Assembly (NCBI GenBank): GCA_964654465.1
Contig: CAZZIO010000018.1
Span: forward strand, 8,348 to 72,347
Length of the DNA stretch: 64,000 nucleotides
Direction: 5' to 3'
DNA from: an uncultured Dictyoglomota bacterium
GTDB taxonomy: Bacteria; Dictyoglomota; Dictyoglomia; Dictyoglomales; Dictyoglomaceae
Part shown: in pieces, positions 28,374-47,248 of the stretch
How the letters are laid out: every line of letters begins with the position of its first letter
Numbering within the stretch: the stretch's first letter is position 1
Notes under the pieces: model-generated
The model's database searches: none
What the model was told of the DNA's origin: nothing
Seen by the model: only the letters and a program-made list of their open reading frames with translations
Program-made: the position numbers and the translations under genes

Positions 28374-29945
28374 CTAACTTCCTGCTTCCAATAGTCTACT
28401 TACAACAAAATCTTTCGGCAAAGATATTAAGAAGTAACCAGCTCTTGGCCCTGATGTTTGATTGAGAAAAGAAAGATATATAAGCTGAAAAGCTCTTTTT
28501 CCTTCTATTCCATGTTCTTGCGCTAAGTTATATATAAAGTTTTGGAGTTCATTACCTTGCCAATCTTTTTCCTTTATTTTATTAGCCAAAATTCTTAAAA
28601 ATTCCTTTTCCTTAGGAAGAAAGGTTTTAACTATTTCAGGTGTCTTTTCCTGTAATTTAAATTTCACCTGAGATGGTGCAAATTTTTCAAGCCAATTTTT
28701 TACATATTCAATCCTTTTTAATATCTCATCAAACTTACTAAGCTCACTTTCATAACCGCTTCTTATAAGCATCTCTTTTAGAAGTTCATTATTTCCCAAG
28801 GATATTTGAGTTAATGTAATTATATGCCTGAGTGGTACTTGTGGCCCTATCTCTTTTGGAATCTCTCTTACCTGTGAAAGTTCATAAAGTCTCGCAATTT
28901 CAGCCCACTCTTCTTCCGTACCTTCTAATCGGTAATAAATTCTCTCCAATCTTTCATAATCCTCTGCTAAAAGAATATATCCATTTACTGGATCAAAATC
29001 TATATGCTTATCTGGTTTATATCTCAATATGAGATATCTTACCCATGAAGGGGGGAGGATTTCTAATATTTCATTAATAGAAATAGCTATCCCTTTTGAG
29101 CTTGACATAGCTCCTTTCCCTTTCAGATATATCCATTCATATACAAAGGGATAAGGAGGCTCATATCCAAATATCTCTTTCGTAATGACCTTTCCTGTAT
29201 CATAAGAACCACCTGTAGTAGCATGATCTTTCCCAAAAGGTTCTACTGTAACTCCAAAAATCTTCCATCTACCCGGCCAATCAAGTCGCCAAGGAAGTTT
29301 TGCTTCTCCTTTGCTATAATCTGATACTCCTTGATGACCGCATTTACATTGATATTCCACTTGATGTTTTTTAGTATCATAGGAAATTATTTTTGTAGTA
29401 GCTAACCTTCCACATTTTTCACATTTTGGAAGGAGAGGAACAAAATCTTTCTCTAAATTTCTCCCTGCTATTTCATTAAGAATCTCTTTTATTTTTTGAT
29501 TATTTTCCAAAGTTAAGTCAATAATCTCAGTATACAAGCCCTTTTTATAACTTTCGTGAGCCTTTATTACTTTTGGTTCAATACCTAATACTTTTATTGC
29601 TTCTAAAAATGGTTCTAAAAAGTGTTCTGCATAATTCTCATGACATCCTTCAGGATCAGGAATTTCAGATATGGGCTTTCCTACATGTTCAGCATAAGAT
29701 TCTGGTAAGAAAGGATATACTTTTCTTAAAGGGTCAAATGTATCAGCTATATAAATAAAATCTACTTCTGAACCTTGATCCCTTAAAGCTCTTGAAAGGG
29801 CATCACCAGTTAAAATCTCCCTCAGGTTCCCAAGATGGATGGGACCTGAGGGAGTAATACCAGTTGCTACCACATTTTTATTACCTTTTAACTTAATTAT
29901 TTCAGATGCTGCTATATCTGCCCAATGCGGGACTTTTTTTACCAT
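28374..29945 (-). CDS. lysK: class I (archaeal-type) lysyl-tRNA synthetase
   Basis: 523 aa. HIGH-type PSGPIHLGNLRE and KMSKS-type GAMSSSKG motifs, plus the CxxC...CxC insertion typical of class I LysRS. Confidence 0.9.
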   Translation of the reverse strand: MVKKVPHWADIAASEIIKLKGNKNVVATGITPSGPIHLGNLREILTGDALSRALRDQGSEVDFIYIADTFDPLRKVYPFLPESYAEHVGKPISEIPDPEGCHENYAEHFLEPFLEAIKVLGIEPKVIKAHESYKKGLYTEIIDLTLENNQKIKEILNEIAGRNLEKDFVPLLPKCEKCGRLATTKIISYDTKKHQVEYQCKCGHQGVSDYSKGEAKLPWRLDWPGRWKIFGVTVEPFGKDHATTGGSYDTGKVITKEIFGYEPPYPFVYEWIYLKGKGAMSSSKGIAISINEILEILPPSWVRYLILRYKPDKHIDFDPVNGYILLAEDYERLERIYYRLEGTEEEWAEIARLYELSQVREIPKEIGPQVPLRHIITLTQISLGNNELLKEMLIRSGYESELSKFDEILKRIEYVKNWLEKFAPSQVKFKLQEKTPEIVKTFLPKEKEFLRILANKIKEKDWQGNELQNFIYNLAQEHGIEGKRAFQLIYLSFLNQTSGPRAGYFLISLPKDFVVSRLLEAGS

Positions 29946-31153
29946 ACAGAATACTTCCCTTCTGCTAATTCATTGCAGAATTTTTCGATATTAGCAAGCT
30001 CATTATCAATAATGTTTTCTACTGATTTTGATATATCATAAATTGATACACCATTTTCTAAAATAAGTTGAGCAGTAGCAATTTTTGGTTGATCAATTGG
30101 CCTTCCAATTTGACTGCAAAGCCATACATATACCTCTTTTATACCAGGAACATTCTGATAAATTTCATTTGCTATTTTATGAGTCAAAATATTGTATATT
30201 TTTCCTACATGGCTTACAGGATTTTTACCTGCAGCTGCCTCCGTTCCCATAGGGCGATTTAGTGCAATAACACCATTTACTCTATTTCCTCTTCCCACTT
30301 GTCCCGAGTCAGCATCTTCAGCAGAAGTTCCAAGAACACTTATATACATTCCATCCATGCCTCTTTCAGGATCATCCAATGTGTTAATATCTATTGTTAT
30401 CTGATCAAAATTTTGAGCTCTCTCTTGTACAAACTTTTCAACTATTCCTCTAATTACTTCCTTTTTCTCAAAATAATCTTGCACACTATTAACATATCTA
30501 TCGATGAAAGGCATAGCTATAGTAATTTGCAAATTTCTTTTTTGACGAAACGCCATTATTTTTATGTCTTCTCCTACTTCGGGATGAATTTTCTTAAATT
30601 CTGGGGAGTTAAGATATCTTTCAAGTTCTAAAACTATTTTTTCAGTGGATGTTAAAGGTGCATATCCTACAGCAGCTGAAGTATCGTTAGCTGGAAGAAG
30701 ACCTTTTCTTCTTCTGAAAATATCAGTAAGCTCTGGAGAGCCAGGATAAAGCTCCACTTGATATATTACATGTTTATCAGGGTCAACAAATCTCAAGTTT
30801 TTTCTAAACCATTCTTTAGCAGTTTCTATTGCTATCTCTTCTACAGGAATTCTAATACCATCAACTTCAAAAGTCGCTCTGTCTCCTATTACTAAAAGCA
30901 TTGGTTTTTTCACTTCTCCACCAATGCCAAGCCTTCTTTCAACCTCTCCAGCTACTAATAAACTTTTATCAATATTATGGTGTAATACATTTCCCACCCT
31001 TCTTATATACTCCTGGGAAAGATTTACAGATATCTGGTCCATGATTGCATCACATATAGAGTCAGGATGTCCTACACCTTTTCTTTCAACTAGTTCTACT
31101 CCATGTTCTTCTACTGGTAATGAATTTAATTTTTCAACTACAATGTTTCTCAT
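29939..31153 (-). CDS. mat: archaeal-type S-adenosylmethionine synthetase
   Basis: ERKGVGHPDSICD motif and overall archaeal MAT architecture. The start is set at the ATG at 31153 (MRNIVVEKL) with a GGAGG RBS. The stop overlaps the lysK start by 7 nt. Confidence 0.88.
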   Translation of the reverse strand: MRNIVVEKLNSLPVEEHGVELVERKGVGHPDSICDAIMDQISVNLSQEYIRRVGNVLHHNIDKSLLVAGEVERRLGIGGEVKKPMLLVIGDRATFEVDGIRIPVEEIAIETAKEWFRKNLRFVDPDKHVIYQVELYPGSPELTDIFRRRKGLLPANDTSAAVGYAPLTSTEKIVLELERYLNSPEFKKIHPEVGEDIKIMAFRQKRNLQITIAMPFIDRYVNSVQDYFEKKEVIRGIVEKFVQERAQNFDQITIDINTLDDPERGMDGMYISVLGTSAEDADSGQVGRGNRVNGVIALNRPMGTEAAAGKNPVSHVGKIYNILTHKIANEIYQNVPGIKEVYVWLCSQIGRPIDQPKIATAQLILENGVSIYDISKSVENIIDNELANIEKFCNELAEGKYSVW

Positions 31154-31277
31154 CTTTCCTATCCTCCTTCTTACTTTTTTGTTGAAAATAAGCAAAAAAA
31201 TAATATCACAAGTTAATTAATATTACAACAAAAAGTTTATATTAAATAAAAGTAATACATTTTTCTTAAAATTGCAA

Positions 31278-32997: not shown

Positions 32998-33063
32998 CTT
33001 ATAAAACTCTTCTTTTAAGAGTTGTCCCTTTTCTCACTATAGGGAGGAGTAAAACTCCTCCCT
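32998..33063 (-). terminator. two hairpins ending the hyd-type operon
   Basis: AGGGAGGAG-loop-CTCCTCCCT begins 1 nt after the hydB-like stop. It is followed by AACTCTT-loop-AAGAGTT and then TTTTAT. Confidence 0.55.
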
Positions 33064-33064
33064 A

Positions 33065-34855
33065 TTATTCTTTTCTAATAGCTTTAAATGGACATACCTG
33101 GAAACATATTCCACACTTAGTACATTTACTCTGATCAATAACATATGTTCCATCTTCGTCTTTATAGATCGCCCCTACAGGACAATTTCTAAAACATATA
33201 GAACATTTCCTACACTCTTCCCTTATTACCTCATAATGAATCAAGGCAGTACAAACTTTTGCAGGACATTTTTTATCCCTAATATGGGCAAGGTATTCAT
33301 CCCTGAAGTATTTTAATGTTGTTAAAACAGGATTAGGAGCTCCTTTCCCAAGACCACAAAGTGATGTATTTCTCACAGTATAAGCCAATTGTTCAAGCTC
33401 TAATAAATCCTCTTCCGTCCCTTCACCTTTTGTTATTTTATCTAAAATTTCCAACATTCTCTTAGTACCTACTCTGCATGGTACACACTTTCCACAAGAT
33501 TCGTCTTGCGTAAAAGACAAGAAAAATTTAGCAACATCTACCATACAGTTATCTTCATCCATAACGATAAGTCCACCAGATCCCATGATGGCTCCAAGGG
33601 CAGTTATTGATTCATAATCTATAGGTGTATCTAAGTATTCCGCTGGTATACAACCCCCAGCTGGACCTCCTATCTGGACAGCTTTAAACTTCTTTCCATT
33701 AGGTATTCCACCACCAATATTGTAAACTACCTCTCTCAAAGTTATACCCATAGGTACTTCTATAAGTCCTGTCATATTTATTTTCCCAGCTAAAGCAAAA
33801 ACCTTAGTCCCTTTACTCTTCTCTGTTCCATAACTTGCAAACCAATCAGCACCATTAATAATTATTGGTGGAATATTAGCCCACGTTTCTACATTATTTA
33901 TCACAGTAGGTTTTCCCCATAATCCAGAATTTACTGGAAAAGGCGGACGGGGTCTTGGCATACCTCTTTTACCTTCTATAGATGCAATTAATGCTGTCTC
34001 CTCTCCACAAACAAAAGCTCCTGCTCCAATTCTAATCTCAATATCAAAGGAAAAATCAGTACCCAATATATTGTCTCCTAAAAGGCCATAATTTCTTGCT
34101 TGTTCTAAAGCTGCAGTAAGTCTTTTAATAGCTAAAGGATATTCAGCTCTTATATAGACAAATCCTTTCTTAGCTCCAATAGCATAACCTCCAATTAACA
34201 TACCTTCAATAACAGAGTGAGGATCACCTTCCATAATACTTCTATCCATAAAAGCTCCAGGATCCCCTTCATCTGCATTACAAACTACATACTTTTCCGA
34301 TCCAGAAGCTTTTCTACCAAGCTCCCATTTTAATCCAGTAGGAAAACCCGCTCCTCCCCTTCCACGAAGACCAGATTTTTTAACTTCAGAAATTACATCT
34401 TCTGGAGACATTTGAGTAAGAACTTTTGCAATAGCAGAATAACCATCTCTTGCAATATATTCCTCAATATTTAGAGGATCAATAAACCCTACATTTCTTA
34501 AAGCAATTCTTACTTGATTTTTAAAAAATGGAAGATCGTTAATGGTTGGTATAAATTGTTTTTGCTCCGGTTCTTTTACAAGAAGCCTCTCCACAATCCT
34601 ACCCTTAATAAGGTGTTCATATACAATCTCTTTTGCATCCTGTGGCTTTAATTTAACATAAAAAGTCCCCTCTGGATATATGGCCATAACTGGCCCTAAA
34701 TCACAAGTACCAAAACATCCAGTTTCAATAATTTTTACTTCATCGTAAATACCTGCTTCTTTTAATTCCCTTTCAAGGGCTGATTTGAAAGTTTCTTCAC
34801 CTGCAGAAATGCATGCTGCACCTGCACATAAAAGAATATGTGCTCTCTCTGGCAT
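33065..34855 (-). CDS. hydB: NuoF-like NADH-binding flavoprotein subunit (HydB-type)
   Basis: 596 aa. N-terminal thioredoxin-like 2Fe-2S module, GRGGAGFPTG (NADH/FMN site), SCGKCVPCR (4Fe-4S), and two C-terminal CxxCxxCxxxCP motifs. Confidence 0.9.
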   Translation of the reverse strand: MPERAHILLCAGAACISAGEETFKSALERELKEAGIYDEVKIIETGCFGTCDLGPVMAIYPEGTFYVKLKPQDAKEIVYEHLIKGRIVERLLVKEPEQKQFIPTINDLPFFKNQVRIALRNVGFIDPLNIEEYIARDGYSAIAKVLTQMSPEDVISEVKKSGLRGRGGAGFPTGLKWELGRKASGSEKYVVCNADEGDPGAFMDRSIMEGDPHSVIEGMLIGGYAIGAKKGFVYIRAEYPLAIKRLTAALEQARNYGLLGDNILGTDFSFDIEIRIGAGAFVCGEETALIASIEGKRGMPRPRPPFPVNSGLWGKPTVINNVETWANIPPIIINGADWFASYGTEKSKGTKVFALAGKINMTGLIEVPMGITLREVVYNIGGGIPNGKKFKAVQIGGPAGGCIPAEYLDTPIDYESITALGAIMGSGGLIVMDEDNCMVDVAKFFLSFTQDESCGKCVPCRVGTKRMLEILDKITKGEGTEEDLLELEQLAYTVRNTSLCGLGKGAPNPVLTTLKYFRDEYLAHIRDKKCPAKVCTALIHYEVIREECRKCSICFRNCPVGAIYKDEDGTYVIDQSKCTKCGICFQVCPFKAIRKE

Positions 34856-34884: not shown

Positions 34885-35253
34885 TTATTCAGTAGAAAGA
34901 ACATCCTCAGATACAACCTGACCATTAACCACATGTTGAGCAATTATCTTTCTTGCCTTTTCAGGGGTTACATGTTTATAAAGAACCTTATGTCCTCCTA
35001 ACTTTTGAACAGATATTAATGGCTCATACTCACAAAGTCCAATACATCCTGCCTGAGTTACAACCACATTTTTTAAACCTCTTTTTTCTATCTCATCCAA
35101 AATAGCCAATAATGTCTCCCTTGCGCCAGCTGCTATTCCACACGTCCCCATATGTACTACTATCTTATCCTTACCTTCAGGACTCCTCATCTCAAGTTCT
35201 GCTTGAGTCTTTTCTTTAATCTTCTTAAGATCCTCTAAAGTTAATTTTTTCAT
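34885..35253 (-). CDS. thioredoxin-like [2Fe-2S] ferredoxin
   Basis: GTCGIAAGA and GCIGLCEYEP Cys motifs. The start is set at the ATG at 35253 with a GGGAGG RBS. Confidence 0.8.
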   Translation of the reverse strand: MKKLTLEDLKKIKEKTQAELEMRSPEGKDKIVVHMGTCGIAAGARETLLAILDEIEKRGLKNVVVTQAGCIGLCEYEPLISVQKLGGHKVLYKHVTPEKARKIIAQHVVNGQVVSEDVLSTE

Positions 35254-35254
35254 T

Positions 35255-35788
35255 TTACCAACCTCCCAAATTTTCATTTAAAAATTCTTTTAAAAAAGAA
35301 ATTACTTCTGGAGAATTAATAGGTATTCTAATAGACTCCTTTATTTCCTTTGTAGAAATATTGATCTCATCACCATTTTTAACTATCTTAATCTCAAAAT
35401 CTATATCTGGATTTGTAGCTATCAAGCCCCATATAGTCCCAGAAAGATTTCCCATAGGAGGTAAATCTACACATAAAAAAGGAACTTCTGCATAAATCTC
35501 TGTGCCTTTTCCTACCTCAGAGTTAATCTTTACCTCTCCCCCACAATTTTTAATCAACTCGTAAAATAGAGGAATACCAAGACCAACTTTCCTTGTAGTT
35601 CTACTTGTAAAAAATGGATTTTTAATCTCTTCTAATATTTCTTTTGGCATACCTTTTCCATCATCTTTTATAATTATATACAAAATTCCCCTTTGGAGAT
35701 CTTTTCTAATCTCCAAGTAAATATTTTTTGCATTAGCTTCTATAGAATTTTGTACAAGATCCAAAATATGAAGAGATAATTCTTTCAT
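35255..35788 (-). CDS. stand-alone GHKL (HATPase_c) ATP-binding protein
   Basis: N box HILDLVQNSIEA, G1 box DDGKGM, G2 box GLGIPL. No HisKA, TM or receiver domain. 177 aa. Confidence 0.75.
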   Translation of the reverse strand: MKELSLHILDLVQNSIEANAKNIYLEIRKDLQRGILYIIIKDDGKGMPKEILEEIKNPFFTSRTTRKVGLGIPLFYELIKNCGGEVKINSEVGKGTEIYAEVPFLCVDLPPMGNLSGTIWGLIATNPDIDFEIKIVKNGDEINISTKEIKESIRIPINSPEVISFLKEFLNENLGGW

Positions 35789-36275: not shown

Positions 36276-37019
36276 CTATACCTCCATTTCCTGTATTTTT
36301 ACATTTTTTTCTTTCAAGCTTTTAAAAACTGCTTTTTTAGAAAATTCTTCTAAATATATAAAAGTTTTTGGTTCTTTTATATCCTCTAAATAGTGAGCAT
36401 CAGAAGAAATTAAAAATTTCTTATCTTTCAGTTCTGGGTGCTCGCTAATAAATTTAGTATAGCTTATCTTGTTAGACAATTCTATAAAATCAAAAAATAA
36501 ATCCTTCGGAATAAAACCCAAATTTGATATTATACTAAAGGAAGGCCTATCCACATGGGCTAATATTATTATCCCGCCATATTCTTTTATTTTTTTAACT
36601 GTGTCTGTAACCCTAAGTGATATAGAGGTATTTAATAACCTTTCCTCTATTCTTTCTACCTCATCATTCTCATTAACCACTACTTGTACTCCAAAAATTT
36701 CTTCTCTATTTTTAGTATCTGGTAAATAGTTAAAAATATCTTTTTGAAATTTTAAAGCTGTATCATAATCTTCAAATAAAGCCAATATATGCACTTCTTC
36801 ACTGGTTTGAATTTCCATACCTGGTATTACTAAAACACCCATTCTATCTCCCCAGAAAGAGATAGCAGGATAATTTTCTACCATATGATGATCGGTTATC
36901 GCTATAACTCCTATATTCATTTTCTTTACTCTCTCTATAATGTTTTTAGGACTCATACTCCAATCTCCACAAGGAGAAAGAACCGAATGTATATGCAAAT
37001 CTATCCCTACCCATGCCAA
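36276..37019 (-). CDS. PHP domain phosphoesterase
   Basis: N-terminal IDLHIHSVLSPCGD, then ITDHH and AHVDRP His/Asp metal motifs. 247 aa. Confidence 0.8.
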   Translation of the reverse strand: MAWVGIDLHIHSVLSPCGDWSMSPKNIIERVKKMNIGVIAITDHHMVENYPAISFWGDRMGVLVIPGMEIQTSEEVHILALFEDYDTALKFQKDIFNYLPDTKNREEIFGVQVVVNENDEVERIEERLLNTSISLRVTDTVKKIKEYGGIIILAHVDRPSFSIISNLGFIPKDLFFDFIELSNKISYTKFISEHPELKDKKFLISSDAHYLEDIKEPKTFIYLEEFSKKAVFKSLKEKNVKIQEMEV

Positions 37020-37037: not shown

Positions 37038-37406
37038 CTATGAATCATTAATAGAGGTAGGCACAATACCTTTATTATATAGAATTCCACTAACCTCAAA
37101 AACTATTTTATCAGTACTTATAAGAATAATTCCTTTTTCTTTAGAAAGTTCAACAACTTCCTTAGGAACTACTTTTCCTCTGCAGACAATTATCATTGGT
37201 ATATCAAGAATCTCAGCAGTGCGAACAATTTGTGAATTTGTGATCCCCGTAATAAGTACCACATCTTTTTCATTAGAAGTTACCATAGCTAACACATCAC
37301 TCATAAGATCTGCAGCAAAAGCCTTTTTAATATCTACCTCATCTAACAAATTTTCTCCTGCCAATACCTTCCCATTAATCAACTCTACAATCTCTCTTGC
37401 CTTCAT
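37038..37406 (-). CDS. DRTGG domain protein
   Basis: 122 aa with the pattern DLMSDVL...VLITGITNSQIVRTAEILD...CRGK. Paralogous to 39928-40287. Confidence 0.7.
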   Translation of the reverse strand: MKAREIVELINGKVLAGENLLDEVDIKKAFAADLMSDVLAMVTSNEKDVVLITGITNSQIVRTAEILDIPMIIVCRGKVVPKEVVELSKEKGIILISTDKIVFEVSGILYNKGIVPTSINDS

Positions 37407-37750
37407 TGAAGCCTATCTACTCCTTTTATTCCTAAACTATAAAGTTTACCTACCACATTAAAGGCATTATCTTTAGTAATTAATAAAGCAATTTTTTCTT
37501 CTTTTGCCTTTTTAATAGTCTCTTCATCAGGATTTTGACCTGAAACAAAAATTATACTTTTAATTCCAGTAAGTACTGCAACTGCTATAGTATTTACATG
37601 AGTCTGAATAGTAACCCATACCGAATCTTCGGGAGCATGAGCCATAACAAAAGAAAGCAAATCACTTACAATTCCACCCCTAATTTCATAATCCTCATCC
37701 ATATAAATAACATTTAACTCCAAATTTCTAACAATTTCACTCAGTTTCAT
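37403..37750 (-). CDS. DRTGG domain protein (divergent paralog)
   Basis: 115 aa. Same size and pattern (VSDLLSFVM...VTIQTHVNTIAVAVLTG...) but clearly more divergent. Confidence 0.6.
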   Translation of the reverse strand: MKLSEIVRNLELNVIYMDEDYEIRGGIVSDLLSFVMAHAPEDSVWVTIQTHVNTIAVAVLTGIKSIIFVSGQNPDEETIKKAKEEKIALLITKDNAFNVVGKLYSLGIKGVDRLQ

Positions 37751-39062
37751 CTTTTTCTTCCCTCCGTTTTAAGACAACCGAAGAGGATCTTCTGGATAAT
37801 TCTTCCATCTCTTTTGCCATTTTCCATAACTTTTCCTTAAGAAGAAATATACAATCATAGATTTGAGCATCTCCTCTCACTATATCTTCTGCTAAAGCAG
37901 CGCAAGTAGGAGATCCACATGAACCACAATCAAGTCCAGGAAGCATTTCCATTATTTTTCTCATATCCTCCATCTTTCTTAAAGCCCTATTTATATCTTC
38001 ATCTAATTTCCAAATAGGTCTTGGTAAAATAGGAGAAGTTCTTAATACTTCTGATAGATTTATATCCTCACAAAGAGATTTTTTTATAAAATCTTTATCA
38101 AGTTTTTTGTATAAGGCTAAAATTCTTTTCTTGGCAAGATAATAGTTCTCAGGATTTAATACCCCTCCAACACAACCTTCCTCACAAGCCCTAAGCTCCA
38201 AAAACTTCACATCCTGAAGTTTATTTCTTTCTAAATCTTCAAGAACTCTGGCTACCTTTTCTATACCTCCCACACTTATTACTTCTTCTTCGTTGAATAC
38301 CATTCCCTCTCCCCCAAGAGCTCCTGATAAAATTCCCTTTGCATAAAACCCACCATCTATTGCTTCTACCTCTCTATTGTCATCTTTAAGTTCCTTTTTT
38401 ATTTTTAAGTAAATATTATCAATGCCTATAACAAATTCAAAACCTTCTTCCTTATTTTGTTTTAAATATGTAGCAAAGGCAGGACAAGGAGTAATATAAG
38501 CAAGATGAAGTATTCCTCTTTCTTCCTTCTTCCATAACTTTTTTATTATACTCCCCGCTATCTCAACAGGTGTTTTAAAGGGTGATAAGTTAGAAATCAA
38601 AGTAGGAAAACGTACTTGTATTAACTCTACAACAGCAGGACAGTAAGTGGATATAAGTGGAAGATTGCGAGAACTATTAATATAGTCCATAAGAGCTTCT
38701 TGTAAAAGGAATAAACCACAGGTAGTATCCCAAACTTCTACCGCATTAGTTACCTTTTTAATTGCTCTTTGAATCTCAAAAGGAGAATAATTAGTTGTAA
38801 ATTGGGAATATATCTCGGGAGATATTACTACAACTAAATTATCTAAATAAGATATACTATCATAGGTGTGAGTAAATCCAAAAGGTGCATGATATGGGCA
38901 AACTCTAATGCATTCCCCACAATCGATACATCTATATGGAAGAATGAGGGATTTTCCATTACGAACCCTCATAGCTTCAGTAGGGCAATGCCTTATACAA
39001 TGAATACACCCCTTACACCTCTGCAAATTAATAGCCACTGAATGAATATATTTCTCACTCAT
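37737..39062 (-). CDS. HydA-like [FeFe]-hydrogenase-domain protein, probable sensor (2x[4Fe-4S] + H-domain-like + C-terminal Fe-S domain)
   Basis: CKGCIHCIRHCP and CIDCGECIRVCP. Altered H-cluster motifs STYCPAV, TPCPAF and ELRACEEGCVGG. C-terminal LDCGSCGSPTCAALAEDI. Confidence 0.8.
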   Translation of the reverse strand: MSEKYIHSVAINLQRCKGCIHCIRHCPTEAMRVRNGKSLILPYRCIDCGECIRVCPYHAPFGFTHTYDSISYLDNLVVVISPEIYSQFTTNYSPFEIQRAIKKVTNAVEVWDTTCGLFLLQEALMDYINSSRNLPLISTYCPAVVELIQVRFPTLISNLSPFKTPVEIAGSIIKKLWKKEERGILHLAYITPCPAFATYLKQNKEEGFEFVIGIDNIYLKIKKELKDDNREVEAIDGGFYAKGILSGALGGEGMVFNEEEVISVGGIEKVARVLEDLERNKLQDVKFLELRACEEGCVGGVLNPENYYLAKKRILALYKKLDKDFIKKSLCEDINLSEVLRTSPILPRPIWKLDEDINRALRKMEDMRKIMEMLPGLDCGSCGSPTCAALAEDIVRGDAQIYDCIFLLKEKLWKMAKEMEELSRRSSSVVLKRREEKDETE

Positions 39063-39931
39063 TGTCTTTCCCTCTTTAAATATATTTTCGAGTACACCTT
39101 TGTACCCTTTCCCACTTCGGACTCAATCTTTAATTCATCTGATGAATTCTTAATATTTGGAAGTCCCATACCTGCCCCAAATCCCATTTCCCTAATATTA
39201 TCTGGTGCTGTTGAATAACCTGGTTGCATAGCAAGCTCTATATCAGGAATTCCTGGACCTTCATCCTCAGCAATTATTTCAATATACTCTGGTGTAACTT
39301 TTACTCTTAAAACTCCCCTGTAGGCGTGAATAACTATGTTCATCTCAGCCTCATAAGTGACGACCGCAACCCTTCTAAGTATATCTACACTTATTCCAAG
39401 TTGTTGCAAAGCTTTTTTTATATTACTGGACGCCATACCAGCAAGAGCAAAATCTCCCCCTAACACAGGAAACTCCAAAGTTAATATATTTTCCTCTTTG
39501 GGCTCCTGAGTAATAGTTCCTTCTATATCTTCCACATCTACCAAATTCAAAACTACATCCTTAGTACTTAACATTCCTAAAACCTTTTTTTCATTATCTA
39601 TTACAGGAAATCTTCCATACCTAAATTGTCGGAATCTAATCAAAGCTTCATACAAAGTATTATCTGGAGACAAACATTTTGGATCTCTTACCATATACTT
39701 TCCACACGGTGAGTTTAAATCGCCATTAACAAGTGCCACAATTACATTCTCTACAGTGACTAAACCTACAAGCCTATCTATATCATCTACAATAGGAATT
39801 GCATCAATTCTTTTGATTCTCATAATTTCTTGAATTGAACGCATATCTTGGTAAGGTTTTAACCTTACTATATCTGTGTTCATTATATCTTTTACTTTTA
39901 TTTTTTCTAAATATTCCTTAGGTATCTTCAA
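39059..39931 (-). CDS. CBS-pair plus GHKL (SpoIIAB/RsbW-like) ATP-binding protein
   Basis: Two CBS repeats (DIMNTDIVRL..., YMVRDPKCL...) followed by EDEGPGIP and GFGAGMGLPN ATP-lid motifs. Confidence 0.75.
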   Translation of the reverse strand: MKIPKEYLEKIKVKDIMNTDIVRLKPYQDMRSIQEIMRIKRIDAIPIVDDIDRLVGLVTVENVIVALVNGDLNSPCGKYMVRDPKCLSPDNTLYEALIRFRQFRYGRFPVIDNEKKVLGMLSTKDVVLNLVDVEDIEGTITQEPKEENILTLEFPVLGGDFALAGMASSNIKKALQQLGISVDILRRVAVVTYEAEMNIVIHAYRGVLRVKVTPEYIEIIAEDEGPGIPDIELAMQPGYSTAPDNIREMGFGAGMGLPNIKNSSDELKIESEVGKGTKVYSKIYLKRERQ

Positions 39932-40287
39932 ATATCAAAATCAACCTTCTTTCCTTGAAACCCAGCTACATATAATTTTCCACATGCCTCATACATAGGG
40001 TATTTTGTTGTAAGAAGAGGAATACCAGATTTCTTTGCTACTTCTATTACATCTTGATAGGGTATTTTACCTCTAACAAACACGACTCCAGCCAAATCTA
40101 AAATCTCAGCAGTTCTTATAACCTGTAACGTAACAAGACCTGTAAGGAGAAGCGAATTTGCCTCTAAGAGACAAAGAGCATCACTCATTAAATCTGTTGC
40201 ACCTACATACAAAACCTCATTTTCAAGTTTCTCTTCTAAACATAGAACTTCAGCTTTTAATATTTCTTTTACCTTCTTAAGATTCAT
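39928..40287 (-). CDS. DRTGG domain protein
   Basis: 119 aa with the pattern DLMSDALCLL...LLLTGLVTLQVIRTAEILD...VRGK. First gene of the operon. Confidence 0.7.
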   Translation of the reverse strand: MNLKKVKEILKAEVLCLEEKLENEVLYVGATDLMSDALCLLEANSLLLTGLVTLQVIRTAEILDLAGVVFVRGKIPYQDVIEVAKKSGIPLLTTKYPMYEACGKLYVAGFQGKKVDFDI

Positions 40288-44720: not shown

Positions 44721-45320
44721 TTATCTCTTTTTCGTGTTTTGCATAGCCATAAATTCTACCTCACCTTTCAATATTTGCAAAAAGAGATTGTTTCCCACAT
44801 TTTTATTCTCTTTCATATACTTTTCTATTCTTTCTCTCTCAAATGATATCACCTTCAAAAAATCATCAACGGTAAATATGGGAAGACCAAATTCATTTTC
44901 TCTCTTCTCTAATTTCGCTAATTCCTCTTGTAAAATACTCTTTAGCTTTGTCCCGCGGGAAGATTTAGGGTAAAGATTAGGAAGATATAAATTTTTTTTA
45001 CGGGTTTGATATTCCTTCTCAAGTAAACTCAAAACCTCTAAAAACTCTTCATCAGTAAAAGAAGGAAATTCTAATAAAAATTTATACACCAACTCTTCTA
45101 AGAATAAAAATAAATCCCATTGGAGTCTTGTAAAATTAGCAGGTTTTTCTTCAACCCTCTCTATAGTGTGTATTTGAGCTTCCTTTAAATAGATACAATC
45201 TTGAGTACAATTTATCTCCTTTATACGCTTTGTGCCACAGCACTCAGTACATATAAAGGCGCTAAGAGCTGGACATTTTCTTTTACCTTTTCTTTTCCCA
45301 CATATAACACATACACTCAT
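44721..45320 (-). CDS. hypothetical protein with N-terminal 8-Cys cluster
   Basis: The first 43 aa contain CVIC...CPALSAFICTECC...CTQDC. The rest is helical and K/E-rich. No family recognised. Confidence 0.5.
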   Translation of the reverse strand: MSVCVICGKRKGKRKCPALSAFICTECCGTKRIKEINCTQDCIYLKEAQIHTIERVEEKPANFTRLQWDLFLFLEELVYKFLLEFPSFTDEEFLEVLSLLEKEYQTRKKNLYLPNLYPKSSRGTKLKSILQEELAKLEKRENEFGLPIFTVDDFLKVISFERERIEKYMKENKNVGNNLFLQILKGEVEFMAMQNTKKR

Positions 45321-46096: not shown

Positions 46097-47248
46097 ATGG
46101 AATACGTATTAGATGAAAACTCCTTATCTATAGAGGACCTTGTAGATATTGTTAAGAAGAGATATATAATAACTCTTTCTGAAACTCTTTCTCAAAAAGT
46201 TAATCAATCTAATAATCTTCTAAATATATATATTAGACATTTTGACTCAATATTTAAAGATGAGAAATTTAATAAAATCTTCTCTAGTTCTTATTTAAAT
46301 AAGGAGGAAAAAAGATCTATTATTATCACATTAATATACACTGCATCCAATGGAAATTCAGGCATAAGCTATAAAACCATAAAAGAGATTATAACTAAAA
46401 TTGGTAGATTAGAAGATATAGACATTCCAGAAACTTCTTTAAGTCCAATAAATATGCCTCCATATGGCTATATTTTATCCCACTTAGATACCTCAGATGT
46501 GGAAAGAAGAATAATTCTAAAAAGTAAGGGTTATTATATAGCTATCTTAGCTCTTTTATATTATAGATTAGAGATTATTAGAAAAATTCTATCGGTAATC
46601 TTTGTCCTATATTATAGAACAGTGAAATTTCAAAACCCTTATATTGATCCCTATATTTTAGCTTCAAATCCTCATTTATCCTTGATTAAATTAGGAGAGA
46701 ATATAAATATCCTAACAAAAAAGGAAAATGATAGATCTTTATTGGATTTAAATTCTATTGAAATTTCTTTTCACAAACTCTGTCATCTTTATGATTTGTC
46801 CTACAAACTAAAAGAGATATTAAATATCGAATTAAACTCTTCCCAATTCCCTATAATTTTTAATATAGACAAAGAAAATTATGTTTTAAATCCTTTAAAC
46901 ACAACGGAAAAATATTTATTAACTATTTACTTGGAAAATATTACTAAAAATATTGTTGAGATTTTGTCTACCCTTTTTCCATCCTCCAAATATAAATTAT
47001 TCACAATAAAAAACTCTAAAAATTATGAGAGCAGTATACTATATTTTAAAGAAACCATTCGTATAACAGAAGAGATTTTAAGTAAAATACTATTAGAACT
47101 TTTAAAAATAAATAATTTACAAACTGAACTAAAAAATCTTTTAATAAATTTCCTGAAAGAATTTAAAATAAAAACTCAAGAAGAACTAACATTATCCCTT
47201 GAAAATCTAATCTCCTTTTTAGAGAATCAAATAGAAGAACTATACTAA
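46097..47248 (+). CDS. hypothetical protein, weak N-terminal resemblance to HAL/PAL ammonia-lyases
   Basis: 383 aa, I/L/N/K-rich and visibly more AT-rich than its neighbours. Starts 6 nt after the phoU stop. See findings. Confidence 0.45.
   Translation: MEYVLDENSLSIEDLVDIVKKRYIITLSETLSQKVNQSNNLLNIYIRHFDSIFKDEKFNKIFSSSYLNKEEKRSIIITLIYTASNGNSGISYKTIKEIITKIGRLEDIDIPETSLSPINMPPYGYILSHLDTSDVERRIILKSKGYYIAILALLYYRLEIIRKILSVIFVLYYRTVKFQNPYIDPYILASNPHLSLIKLGENINILTKKENDRSLLDLNSIEISFHKLCHLYDLSYKLKEILNIELNSSQFPIIFNIDKENYVLNPLNTTEKYLLTIYLENITKNIVEILSTLFPSSKYKLFTIKNSKNYESSILYFKETIRITEEILSKILLELLKINNLQTELKNLLINFLKEFKIKTQEELTLSLENLISFLENQIEELY

Follow-up and report, generated by a model that had tools for sequence, protein, structure and literature searches.

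Group D (M2e) of the putative sensory [FeFe]-hydrogenases combines two N-terminal [4Fe-4S] motifs, a hydrogenase domain (H-domain) and a C-terminal Cx2Cx4Cx16C motif, and has no PAS domain (PMC8163306, PMC10407848). Relative to the hydrogenase CpI, Cys299 has been lost in this group (Ala137 in TamHydS, the group D protein of Thermoanaerobacter mathranii), M353 is replaced by Ser or Thr, and M497 is Leu in TamHydS (PMC8163306, PMC10407848); the genes often share an operon with a group A hydrogenase (PMC8163306, PMC10407848). The Cx2Cx4Cx16C sequence is an extra [4Fe-4S] motif common to the group C and group D sensory hydrogenases (PMC8163306), and it binds a [4Fe-4S] cluster in TamHydS (PMC13104023). 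Here we describe a hydrogenase-like protein of 441 amino acids encoded in a stretch of 64,000 nucleotides (hereafter the window) from an uncultured Dictyoglomota bacterium (assembly GCA_964654465.1, contig CAZZIO010000018.1, positions 8,348 to 72,347). Homology, architecture and gene context support its placement in the putative sensory group D lineage, as a derived offshoot, which agrees with the view taken in the initial annotation of this DNA that the protein is not a prototypical catalyst.

The open reading frame (ORF) begins with ATG on the minus strand and is a real coding gene (coordinates of this and the other features are collected in Table 1). The initial annotation had placed two CxxCxxCxxxCP motifs at the N-terminus and had aligned the central region by eye with the three signature motifs of the H-cluster. 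Both assignments hold. The N-terminal motifs were located at residues 16-27 (CKGCIHCIRHCP) and 45-56 (CIDCGECIRVCP), with matches to Fer4 families, and alignment to solved hydrogenases with HMMER gave the identical register without any shift: LISTYCPAV lies opposite MFTSCCPAW, ITPCPAFATY opposite FMPCTAKKFE, and ELRACEEGCVGG opposite EVMTCPEGCISG. Y140, T191, F196, Y199 and R291 are therewith equivalent to C299, M353, K358, E361 and M497 of CpI, and in the third motif R291 stands for M497/Leu and E295 for Gly. The four cysteines said to ligate the [4Fe-4S] part of the H-cluster are indeed retained; C141, C193, C293 and C297, the last being the bridging one, align with the ligand cysteines of the solved enzymes and are invariant in 118 diverse sequences, as are C45, C48, C51 and C55, while C16, C19, C22 and C26 are conserved in at least 90%. 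Pfam assigns residues 75-300 to Fe_hyd_lg_C (PF02906, E 1.7e-24), residues 9-59 to a Fer4 dicluster family and residues 374-406 to the FeS module PF04060 (E 1.4e-13). The C-terminal motif, LDCGSCGSPTCAALAEDIVRGDAQIYDC (LDCGSC...YDC), starts at residue 377 and supplies C379, C382, C387 and C404, after which a 36-residue helix ends the protein in the AlphaFold2 model. This model is confident (predicted local distance difference test score (pLDDT) 89.3, predicted TM-score (pTM) 0.86), its best Foldseek matches are all [FeFe]-hydrogenases (probability 1.0, TM 0.6-0.67), and the predicted structure shows that the hydrogenase fold is retained.

The relatives number more than 8000 proteins of about 440 amino acids, and the domain architecture was seen in the 120 that were listed. 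The closest named ones among the matches listed come from Dictyoglomus and other Dictyoglomaceae (61-92% identity); next come many Clostridia at about 40%. The canonical relatives are 39-42% identical over the full length and carry ISSACP, I(T/S)PCxAKxTS and E(A/G)L(A/S)CxGGC together with the same tail. The window protein has the two N-terminal [4Fe-4S] motifs, the PF02906 domain with four cysteines and the Cx2Cx4Cx16C tail, and a Pfam scan of all 441 residues found no PAS domain, as had been proposed. A PAS domain C-terminal to the Fe-S tail, as expected for group C, is thus absent. Cys299 is replaced and M353 has become Thr (Y140, T191), although Tyr is atypical, since 109 of 109 canonical sequences have Ala or Ser. 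The group A signatures TSCCPxW, MPCxxKxxE and ExMxCxxGCxxGG are missing; TIGR02512 reaches 66 bits where the cutoff is 406, and the NCBIfam hydrogenase models in general score far under their cutoffs. In a simple neighbour-joining phylogeny, built without a curated A-G reference set, the distance to group D is 1.1 and that to group A 2.35, and the split that decides between a sister and a nested position occurs in 46 of 100 bootstraps.

Much of what had seemed special about this protein is therefore the norm of its family. The initial annotation took the rewriting of all three motifs as its peculiarity; however, the loss of C299, the change of M353 to Thr or Ser, the loss of M497, the Fe-S tail and the missing PAS domain all match the published group D pattern. 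Likewise, an RnfB-type tail was thought to stand in place of PAS. The PF04060 module is present, but it is not a PAS replacement, because group C carries Cx2Cx4Cx16C together with PAS (PMC8163306). An identity as RnfB was rejected: the protein shares only this 33-residue module, TIGR01944 gives 48 bits against a cutoff of 68.7, and no rnf genes were found among the window ORFs scanned. Two group D traits are missing here. The Lys equivalent to CpI K358 is replaced by F196, and the HydA that is usually co-encoded is absent from the operon and from the 64-kb window, although NuoE, ferredoxin and NuoF are present. The truly distinctive points lay beyond the reach of the initial annotation and are the unconstrained loss of this Lys, the change D265G, a kinase fused to a CBS pair, and an operon that lacks HydA.

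TamHydS resembles the window protein in length class and in domain order, in lacking the proton-transfer Cys, in the replacement of M353 by a hydroxyl residue and in the presence of E252 and E289 (PMC8163306, PMC10407848); it too has a neighbouring gene for a histidine-kinase-like ATPase, with NuoE and NuoF genes downstream. Compared with TamHydS, the window protein has Tyr for Ala at the C299 position, Arg for Leu at the M497 position, Glu295 for Gly, Gly for Asp265 and Leu for Ser249, and the Lys358 equivalent is lost and unconstrained; its locus differs in the CBS pair fused to the kinase, the extra DRTGG gene and the lack of an operon HydA. TamHydS binds [2Fe] and turns over H2. The group C (M2f) protein TmHydS of Thermotoga maritima shares the clusters at the N-terminus, the lack of the proton-transfer Cys in the H-domain, and Cx2Cx4Cx16C (PMC8163306); it differs in having PAS after the tail, and M353 and M497 have become Gly and Ser. 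The group A HydA proteins (CpI, and those of the HydABC enzymes of T. maritima and T. kivui) have the same H-domain fold and the four cluster cysteines, but they are only 17-20% identical, all three of their signature motifs are altered in the window protein, and the latter has no match to the Fe_hyd_SSU or NuoG-like N-terminal families that neighbouring group A HydAs carry. A hydrogenase homologue without the cofactor and with a new role has a precedent in the eukaryotic Nar1 (PMC12621388). Nar1/CIAO3/IOP1 keeps the hydrogenase fold, the Cys ligands of [4Fe-4S]H and the accessory cluster; it lacks [2Fe]H and is inactive as a hydrogenase in vivo, and the vacant cavity can hold another cluster (PMC12621388). 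Nar1 acts in cytosolic Fe-S protein assembly, however, has neither the Cx2Cx4Cx16C tail nor a kinase/DRTGG/PHP cassette, and its loss of [2Fe] goes along with missing maturases, whereas a further HydA exists in Dictyoglomus.

The closest relatives form a clade of the window protein and eleven protein clusters (12 members), all from Dictyoglomaceae or hot-spring metagenomes and 61-92% identical, that is monophyletic in 94-100 of 100 neighbour-joining bootstraps. In a 50%-identity library (1.84 billion proteins), one representative stands for the whole clade, and the score falls from 871 to 382 bits at the next match. All 16 Cys ligands are invariant in the clade alignment. Tyr140, Arg291, Glu295, Gly265 and Glu83 are found in 12 of 12 members, at positions that in canonical proteins are occupied by Ala/Ser, Leu/Gln, Gly, Asp and Ser/Thr, respectively; from the alignment, the bulky or charged Tyr140, Arg291 and Glu295 are shown to be fixed around the place where the bridgehead of a di-iron subcluster would lie. 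Position 196 behaves differently. It is Lys in 109 of 109 canonical sequences but Leu in four, Phe in three, Glu in three and Gln in two members of the clade, which ranks it third in variability among the 92 H-domain sites with conservation in canonical proteins. Four more sites where canonical proteins are invariant have loosened: A81 (to S/P), P165 (P/S/H), M166 (V/Y/I/F) and P192 (P/S/T), equivalent to A230, P324, Q325 and P354 of CpI. This occurred despite the lower diversity of the clade (mean entropy 0.71, compared with 1.32 in the canonical sample). In CpI, K358, P324 and Q325 contact the distal cyanide, A230, P231, S232 and P354 line the cavity, and the bridgehead amine is 3.7 A away from M497 (PMC10147833). 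The proton path proposed for group D comprises E252, E289, D265 as the exit residue, and S/T249 (PMC10407848); with TamHydS numbering mapped through motifs only, D265 is Gly and position 249 Leu in all 12 members, and E252 and E289 are invariant.

The substitution set had been suggested to mark a distinct subgroup. A monophyletic subgroup restricted to Dictyoglomaceae does exist, but Tyr or Phe at 140 and Arg at 291 recur outside it in proteins with Lys and an adjacent HydA. In a set of 150 diverse representatives of the wider family, whose residue frequencies are not unbiased because the set was ranked by similarity to the clade profile, position 140 is Ala in 44, Ser in 26, Phe in 24, Thr in 14 and Tyr in 6, and Arg is the commonest residue at position 291 (37); uniqueness of the Tyr/Arg combination was accordingly rejected, as both Phe/Tyr140 and Arg291 are common. 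The four H-cluster cysteines are near-universal in the representative library (P0121-P0268). Tyr140, Arg291 and Glu295 on their own are no evidence of cofactor loss, since elsewhere they co-occur with Lys and an adjacent HydA. The relevant signal for the loss of the cofactor is, as far as residue patterns can tell, the unconstrained loss of Lys and its neighbours.

Ten minus-strand genes, tightly packed and in part overlapping, follow one another in the order DRTGG, CBS-HATPase, hydrogenase-like (the third gene), DRTGG, DRTGG, PHP, NuoE-like, HATPase, [2Fe-2S] ferredoxin and HydB-type NuoF. The kinase stop overlaps the hydrogenase-like start. A search of the 64-kb window with phmmer, using the H-domain and two group A HydAs, found no second H-domain protein. 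To see how this arrangement compares, 80 species-representative genome loci were surveyed among the matches listed by a genome scan, none of them from Dictyoglomus; the Dictyoglomaceae loci were obtained by exact-protein look-ups. Among loci with room, 73 of 75 have the kinase upstream and 70 of 75 a DRTGG gene; on the downstream side, 66 of 73 have a DRTGG gene and 64 of 73 a PHP gene. Most of the 80 loci have a five-gene cassette of DRTGG, SpoIIAB-like kinase, hydrogenase-like, DRTGG and PHP genes, and all 80 retain Lys196. NuoE-HATPase-Fdx-NuoF follow in 31 of the 60 loci with enough sequence, and in 30 of these 31 the next gene is a group A-type HydA. The exception is a canonical locus (L068:9089-15943, with Ala140 and Lys196), so that the loss of HydA from the operon is not strictly confined to Lys-less lineages. 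In the Dictyoglomaceae, NuoF is followed by no HydA in seven of seven loci with room (the window, L001-L003, L006, L007 and L010), although these loci represent one evolutionary event and the counts are not independent. Each Dictyoglomaceae locus also has a second downstream DRTGG gene and a CBS-fused kinase; the fusion is found in eight of eight full-length kinase ORFs from this family and in none of 84 elsewhere, and again in a sister locus (L094). In other genomes the cassette is transcribed divergently from the hydABC operon or lies beside unrelated genes, an arrangement that would suit a regulator.

The kinase matches HATPase_c_2 and the NCBIfam model spIIAB (68 bits, below the cutoff), which likens the cassette to the SpoIIAB/RsbW partner-switching systems. 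The cassette has neither a STAS antagonist nor a PP2C phosphatase, however, and has DRTGG and PHP proteins in those positions. Two DRTGG proteins (37038-37750) and the CBS portion of the kinase encoded at 39059-39931 align to consecutive segments of the CBS-DRTGG insert of the CBS-DRTGG-DHH pyrophosphatases (NF011440, NF011443), with scores well below the cutoffs; the pattern is as if a nucleotide-sensing insert had been split over separate polypeptides.

Outside the clade, three Lys-less members were examined for what the cassette accompanies. P0181 is the nearest to the clade in the neighbour-joining tree with the pocket columns masked, and the two fall into a larger grouping with the subtype that has Phe/Tyr140 and Arg291 in 60 of 100 bootstraps. 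Its pocket is filled with aromatic residues (E252 to Phe, Trp291, Tyr295, with Val140 and Gln for Lys). It shares His21 and the pattern LEL-x-ACE-x-GC-x-GG-x-LN with the window protein, and the kinase encoded upstream of it bears a CBS pair and matches the window kinase at 45% identity over the full length. The P0181 cassette (L094:8796-17200, GC content 37.5%) lies directly upstream of a complete rnfCDGEAB operon and not of a hydrogenase. P0188 (L093:1562-14957), in which Lys was independently replaced by Gln, is found with NuoE/Fdx/NuoF beside a divergently transcribed [NiFe] hydrogenase. The third member, P0165, sits on a contig that ends short of the downstream context. Where the context of a Lys-less lineage can be read, which is so for two of them, the cassette accompanies NAD(H)/ferredoxin modules other than an [FeFe] hydrogenase. 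The [NiFe] enzyme of L093 consists of a HoxH-type large subunit, a small subunit and a NuoG-like subunit, and looks like the bifurcating type.

The pairwise ratio of nonsynonymous to synonymous substitution rates (dN/dS, or omega) was calculated for seven orthologues; all pairs and all domains fall within 0.06-0.18, which indicates strong purifying selection (omega about 0.1). In the H-domain it is 0.09-0.11, and 0.10-0.11 for the two closest pairs, close to the values of the remaining domains. The reading frame is unbroken in each of the eight Dictyoglomaceae loci. The gene is functional.

With a probability that we put at about 55%, the protein is a derived group D offshoot that serves as a [2Fe]-less four-cluster Fe-S sensor and reports the redox or energy state through the DRTGG/kinase/PHP cassette. 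It has probably lost the [2Fe] subcluster and would not react with H2. In the mechanism that we propose, the Fe-S chain would equilibrate with the ferredoxin/NADH pool, possibly via the co-encoded flavoprotein module. The redox state of the chain, together with the binding of adenine nucleotides to the CBS pair, would modulate the kinase; the kinase and the PHP phosphoesterase might then act on the DRTGG proteins in a manner akin to partner switching, and the circuit would control the NAD(H)/ferredoxin oxidoreductase module encoded downstream. A wider version can be put forward tentatively, and we hold it with less confidence: the lineage may be a natural [2Fe]-free branch of group D in H2-making bacteria, re-purposed from H2 sensing to sense the ferredoxin/NADH redox state and, by means of the CBS pair newly fused to its partner kinase, the energy charge, with the cassette as a portable device for different oxidoreductases. 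If this were the case, then the enzyme under the control of the cassette would differ between lineages (in Dictyoglomaceae a HydBC-like flavoprotein, in the sister lineage Rnf, and in others a [NiFe] or [FeFe] bifurcating hydrogenase), and the long-sought interaction partners of group D would have been named.

Several observations weigh against the loss of the cofactor and the sensor role built on it. Although Lys196 is present in 103 of the 150 representatives, the remaining 47 (about 31%) are without it (Arg in 16, Gln in 11, His, Asn and Leu in four each, and others, with hydrophobic residues in roughly a dozen); Lys may therefore matter less in this family than in group A, and group D may be functionally heterogeneous. 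The subtype with Phe/Tyr140, Arg291 and Glu295 keeps Lys, and in L011 its operon is a normal one that includes HydA. Tests for an excess of change or variability at the sites that contact [2Fe] were suggestive and not significant (Fisher p 0.13-0.15, Mann-Whitney p 0.055-0.063), because the clade departs from the canonical proteins at about half of the conserved H-domain sites overall. E252 and E289, which mutagenesis has shown to matter in TamHydS (PMC10407848), are kept in the clade along with the bridging Cys297, and the constraint on the H-domain is compatible with a still functional active site no less than with a structural one. D. thermophilum has a separate HydA homologue, ACI20052 (PMC6085437), so that the maturases HydEFG are presumably available. 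The partner-switch step is proposed by analogy between domains, and the sequencing runs that contain this operon include no RNA sequencing; besides hot-spring and sediment metagenomes they comprise a few small runs labelled by organism, and every one is typed as DNA.

The main alternative explanation is that the protein is a genuine H2 sensor with a full H-cluster in a non-canonical pocket, in which, for example, Arg291 or Glu83 takes over the cyanide or bridgehead contacts, and that it senses the H2 made by HydABC and [NiFe] enzymes encoded elsewhere in the genome. We consider this unlikely; nevertheless, it keeps weight because the bridging Cys, E252 and E289 are kept, the H-domain is constrained and a HydA is found elsewhere in the genome. 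All four H-cluster cysteines are invariant, relatives with F/Y140, R291 and E295 keep Lys and adjoin HydA, Dictyoglomus makes H2 and has a separate HydA (PMC5167688, PMC6085437), and the pocket of TamHydS tolerates large changes and still forms the H-cluster (PMC8163306). D. turgidum, in which three hydrogenase gene clusters have been reported, is one such H2 producer (PMC5167688). An H2 sensor would not lead one to expect, however, that the Lys position ranges without constraint from hydrophobic to acidic (L/F/E/Q), that the equivalents of P324, Q325, A230 and P354 are loosened, or that D265, the proposed exit of the proton path (PMC10407848), is Gly throughout the clade. Moreover, in the sister lineage aromatic residues fill the pocket, E252 is lost and the cassette is followed by rnf and not by a hydrogenase, and the operon in Dictyoglomaceae has lost HydA. 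The Dictyoglomus "HydA" of Poudel, ACI20052, was considered as the window protein itself and rejected, as the D. thermophilum orthologue is ACI18849.1, called "Ferredoxin 2" in UniProt.

It is less probable still that the protein is a structural electron-transfer subunit that replaces HydA beside NuoE, ferredoxin and NuoF in a hydrogenase-less NADH:ferredoxin oxidoreductase. The gene shares its operon with NuoE, Fdx and a HydB-type NuoF with extra domains of the bifurcation type, there is no HydA, and the four predicted [4Fe-4S] clusters could form a wire. However, the protein has no Fer2_4 or NADH-G_4Fe-4S_3 match, unlike the adjacent HydAs of canonical loci with their NuoG-like N-terminal domains, and three genes of regulatory type separate it from NuoE. 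The protein and its cassette also occur before rnf, beside a [NiFe] hydrogenase, divergent from hydABC and with unrelated neighbours; this portability argues that the protein belongs to the cassette and not to the enzyme. A functionless, decaying relic of a hydrogenase operon, as the loss of HydA and of Lys might suggest, is ruled out by the low dN/dS, the intact ORF in the eight loci and in 12 protein clusters at 61-92% identity, the invariant 16 Cys ligands, and the fixation rather than drift of the new residues Y140, R291, E295 and E83.

The sensor reading and the cassette bear on how group D works. The family, its architecture and the sensory hypothesis are already published. As far as the searched literature shows, the sub-lineage of Dictyoglomaceae and P0181 with unconstrained Lys and a CBS-kinase, the uncoupling from HydA, the family-wide frequency of Lys loss and the near-universal DRTGG/kinase/PHP cassette have not been described, and no paper on the DRTGG/kinase/hydrogenase-like/PHP cassette was found in it. 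Identifying the signalling partners of group D has been called critical (PMC13104023). Group D hydrogenases are studied as possible H2 sensors, and the cassette supplies candidate partners: the SpoIIAB-like kinase, the DRTGG proteins and the PHP phosphoesterase. The natural pocket "mutants" (Lys lost in about one third of the representatives; Tyr, Arg and Glu fixed here) could reveal which residues hold the di-iron cofactor. A lineage in which the cassette is uncoupled from the [FeFe] catalytic subunit and attached to other redox modules offers a direct handle on the signal and the target of the cassette. If the protein is [2Fe]-free, it would be a bacterial counterpart of the eukaryotic Nar1.

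Table 1. Features of the hydrogenase-like gene and its operon in the window.
Feature	Coordinates	Strand	Basis
Group-D-like [FeFe]-hydrogenase homologue, 441 aa	37737..39062	-	Pfam, HMMER, AlphaFold2, Foldseek, dN/dS
Two CxxCxxCxxxCP motifs, aa 16-56, N-terminal 2x[4Fe-4S]	38895..39017	-	sequence, Fer4 families
L1 motif STYCPAV, aa 138-144; Y140 for proton-transfer Cys, C141 ligand	38631..38651	-	HMMER alignment
L2 motif TPCPAFATY, aa 191-199; C193 ligand; position 196 (CpI K358) is Phe	38466..38492	-	HMMER alignment
L3 motif ELRACEEGCVGG, aa 289-300; E289 kept; C293 and C297 ligands	38163..38198	-	HMMER alignment
C-terminal Cx2Cx4Cx16C, aa 377-404, fourth predicted [4Fe-4S] site	37851..37934	-	PF04060
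DRTGG protein 1, 119 aa, first cassette gene	39928..40287	-	Pfam PF07085
CBS-pair and HATPase_c_2 protein, 290 aa, SpoIIAB/RsbW-like serine-kinase/anti-sigma-type ATPase	39059..39931	-	Pfam CBS x2, HATPase_c/HATPase_c_2
DRTGG-like protein 2, 115 aa, start overlaps hydrogenase-like end	37403..37750	-	Pfam DRTGG 22.5 bits, just under cutoff
DRTGG protein 3, 122 aa, extra copy limited to Dictyoglomaceae among loci compared	37038..37406	-	Pfam, locus table
PHP-domain phosphoesterase, 247 aa, last cassette gene	36276..37019	-	Pfam PF02811
NuoE/HydC-like [2Fe-2S] thioredoxin-like protein, 162 aa	35785..36273	-	Pfam PF01257, E 6.5e-51
Stand-alone HATPase_c protein, 177 aa, no HisKA, between NuoE and Fdx	35255..35788	-	Pfam
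Small [2Fe-2S] ferredoxin-like protein (Fdx)	34885..35277	-	Pfam
NuoF/HydB-like flavoprotein, 596 aa, N-terminal [2Fe-2S], C-terminal 2x[4Fe-4S], last operon gene	33065..34855	-	Pfam
Palindromic hairpin with 12-bp stem, abutting NuoF stop	33039..33065	.	hairpin search

Some details of the operon and of related loci remain to be added. The hairpin that abuts the NuoF stop likely marks the end of the transcription unit; the next gene, for an FGGY sugar kinase, lies about 160 nt off, with an 11/12 promoter-like site at 32957-32929 on the minus strand. No riboswitch or other upstream RNA was found, the only Rfam matches in the window being three tRNAs. The ferredoxin gene probably begins at an internal Met (35253), given that the called lengths of its orthologues are 122-123 amino acids. 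The position of the stand-alone HATPase_c gene between NuoE and Fdx is conserved in canonical hydABC operons too. Across L012-L091, L004, L005 and L011, the cassette was seen upstream of, divergent from, or apart from hydABC operons. In Desulfofarcimen acetoxidans (L004:4997-8805), HydF-type and radical-SAM (HydE/HydG-type) genes lie directly upstream of the cassette and hydABC. In a metagenome-assembled genome (MAG) of Bacillota (L024:12650-15790), the cassette is directly followed by a protein of about 1030-1050 residues with seven-transmembrane (7TM), GGDEF and EAL domains, a possible cyclic di-GMP output, and an ORF of similar length (about 1030-1050 residues) occupies the same position after the cassette in a second Bacillota MAG (L037:7951-11034).

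Elsewhere in the window, a class I (archaeal-type) lysyl-tRNA synthetase (PF01921) is encoded beside a putative archaeal-type S-adenosylmethionine synthetase (PF01941), the two genes overlapping at their ends (28374-31195). The assignment of the latter (ORF 29939-31195) to PF01941 rests on its syntenic counterparts in the Dictyoglomaceae loci L001 and L010, where the pair is kept. The ORFs at 46097-47248 and 44721-45320 have no recognised domains, and have counterparts in L001, L008 and L010. One, of 383 amino acids, adjoins a PhoU-like gene and matched no Pfam family in the scan; the other, of 199 amino acids and with a Cys-rich N-terminus, adjoins a gene for S-adenosylhomocysteine (AdoHcy) hydrolase, and its L001 counterpart has no recorded Pfam match. 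The minus strand carries 48 of the 54 ORFs of at least 150 amino acids, and the GC skew is negative throughout positions 1-64000 (cumulative -7.85), a pattern consistent with a single replichore with strong strand bias.

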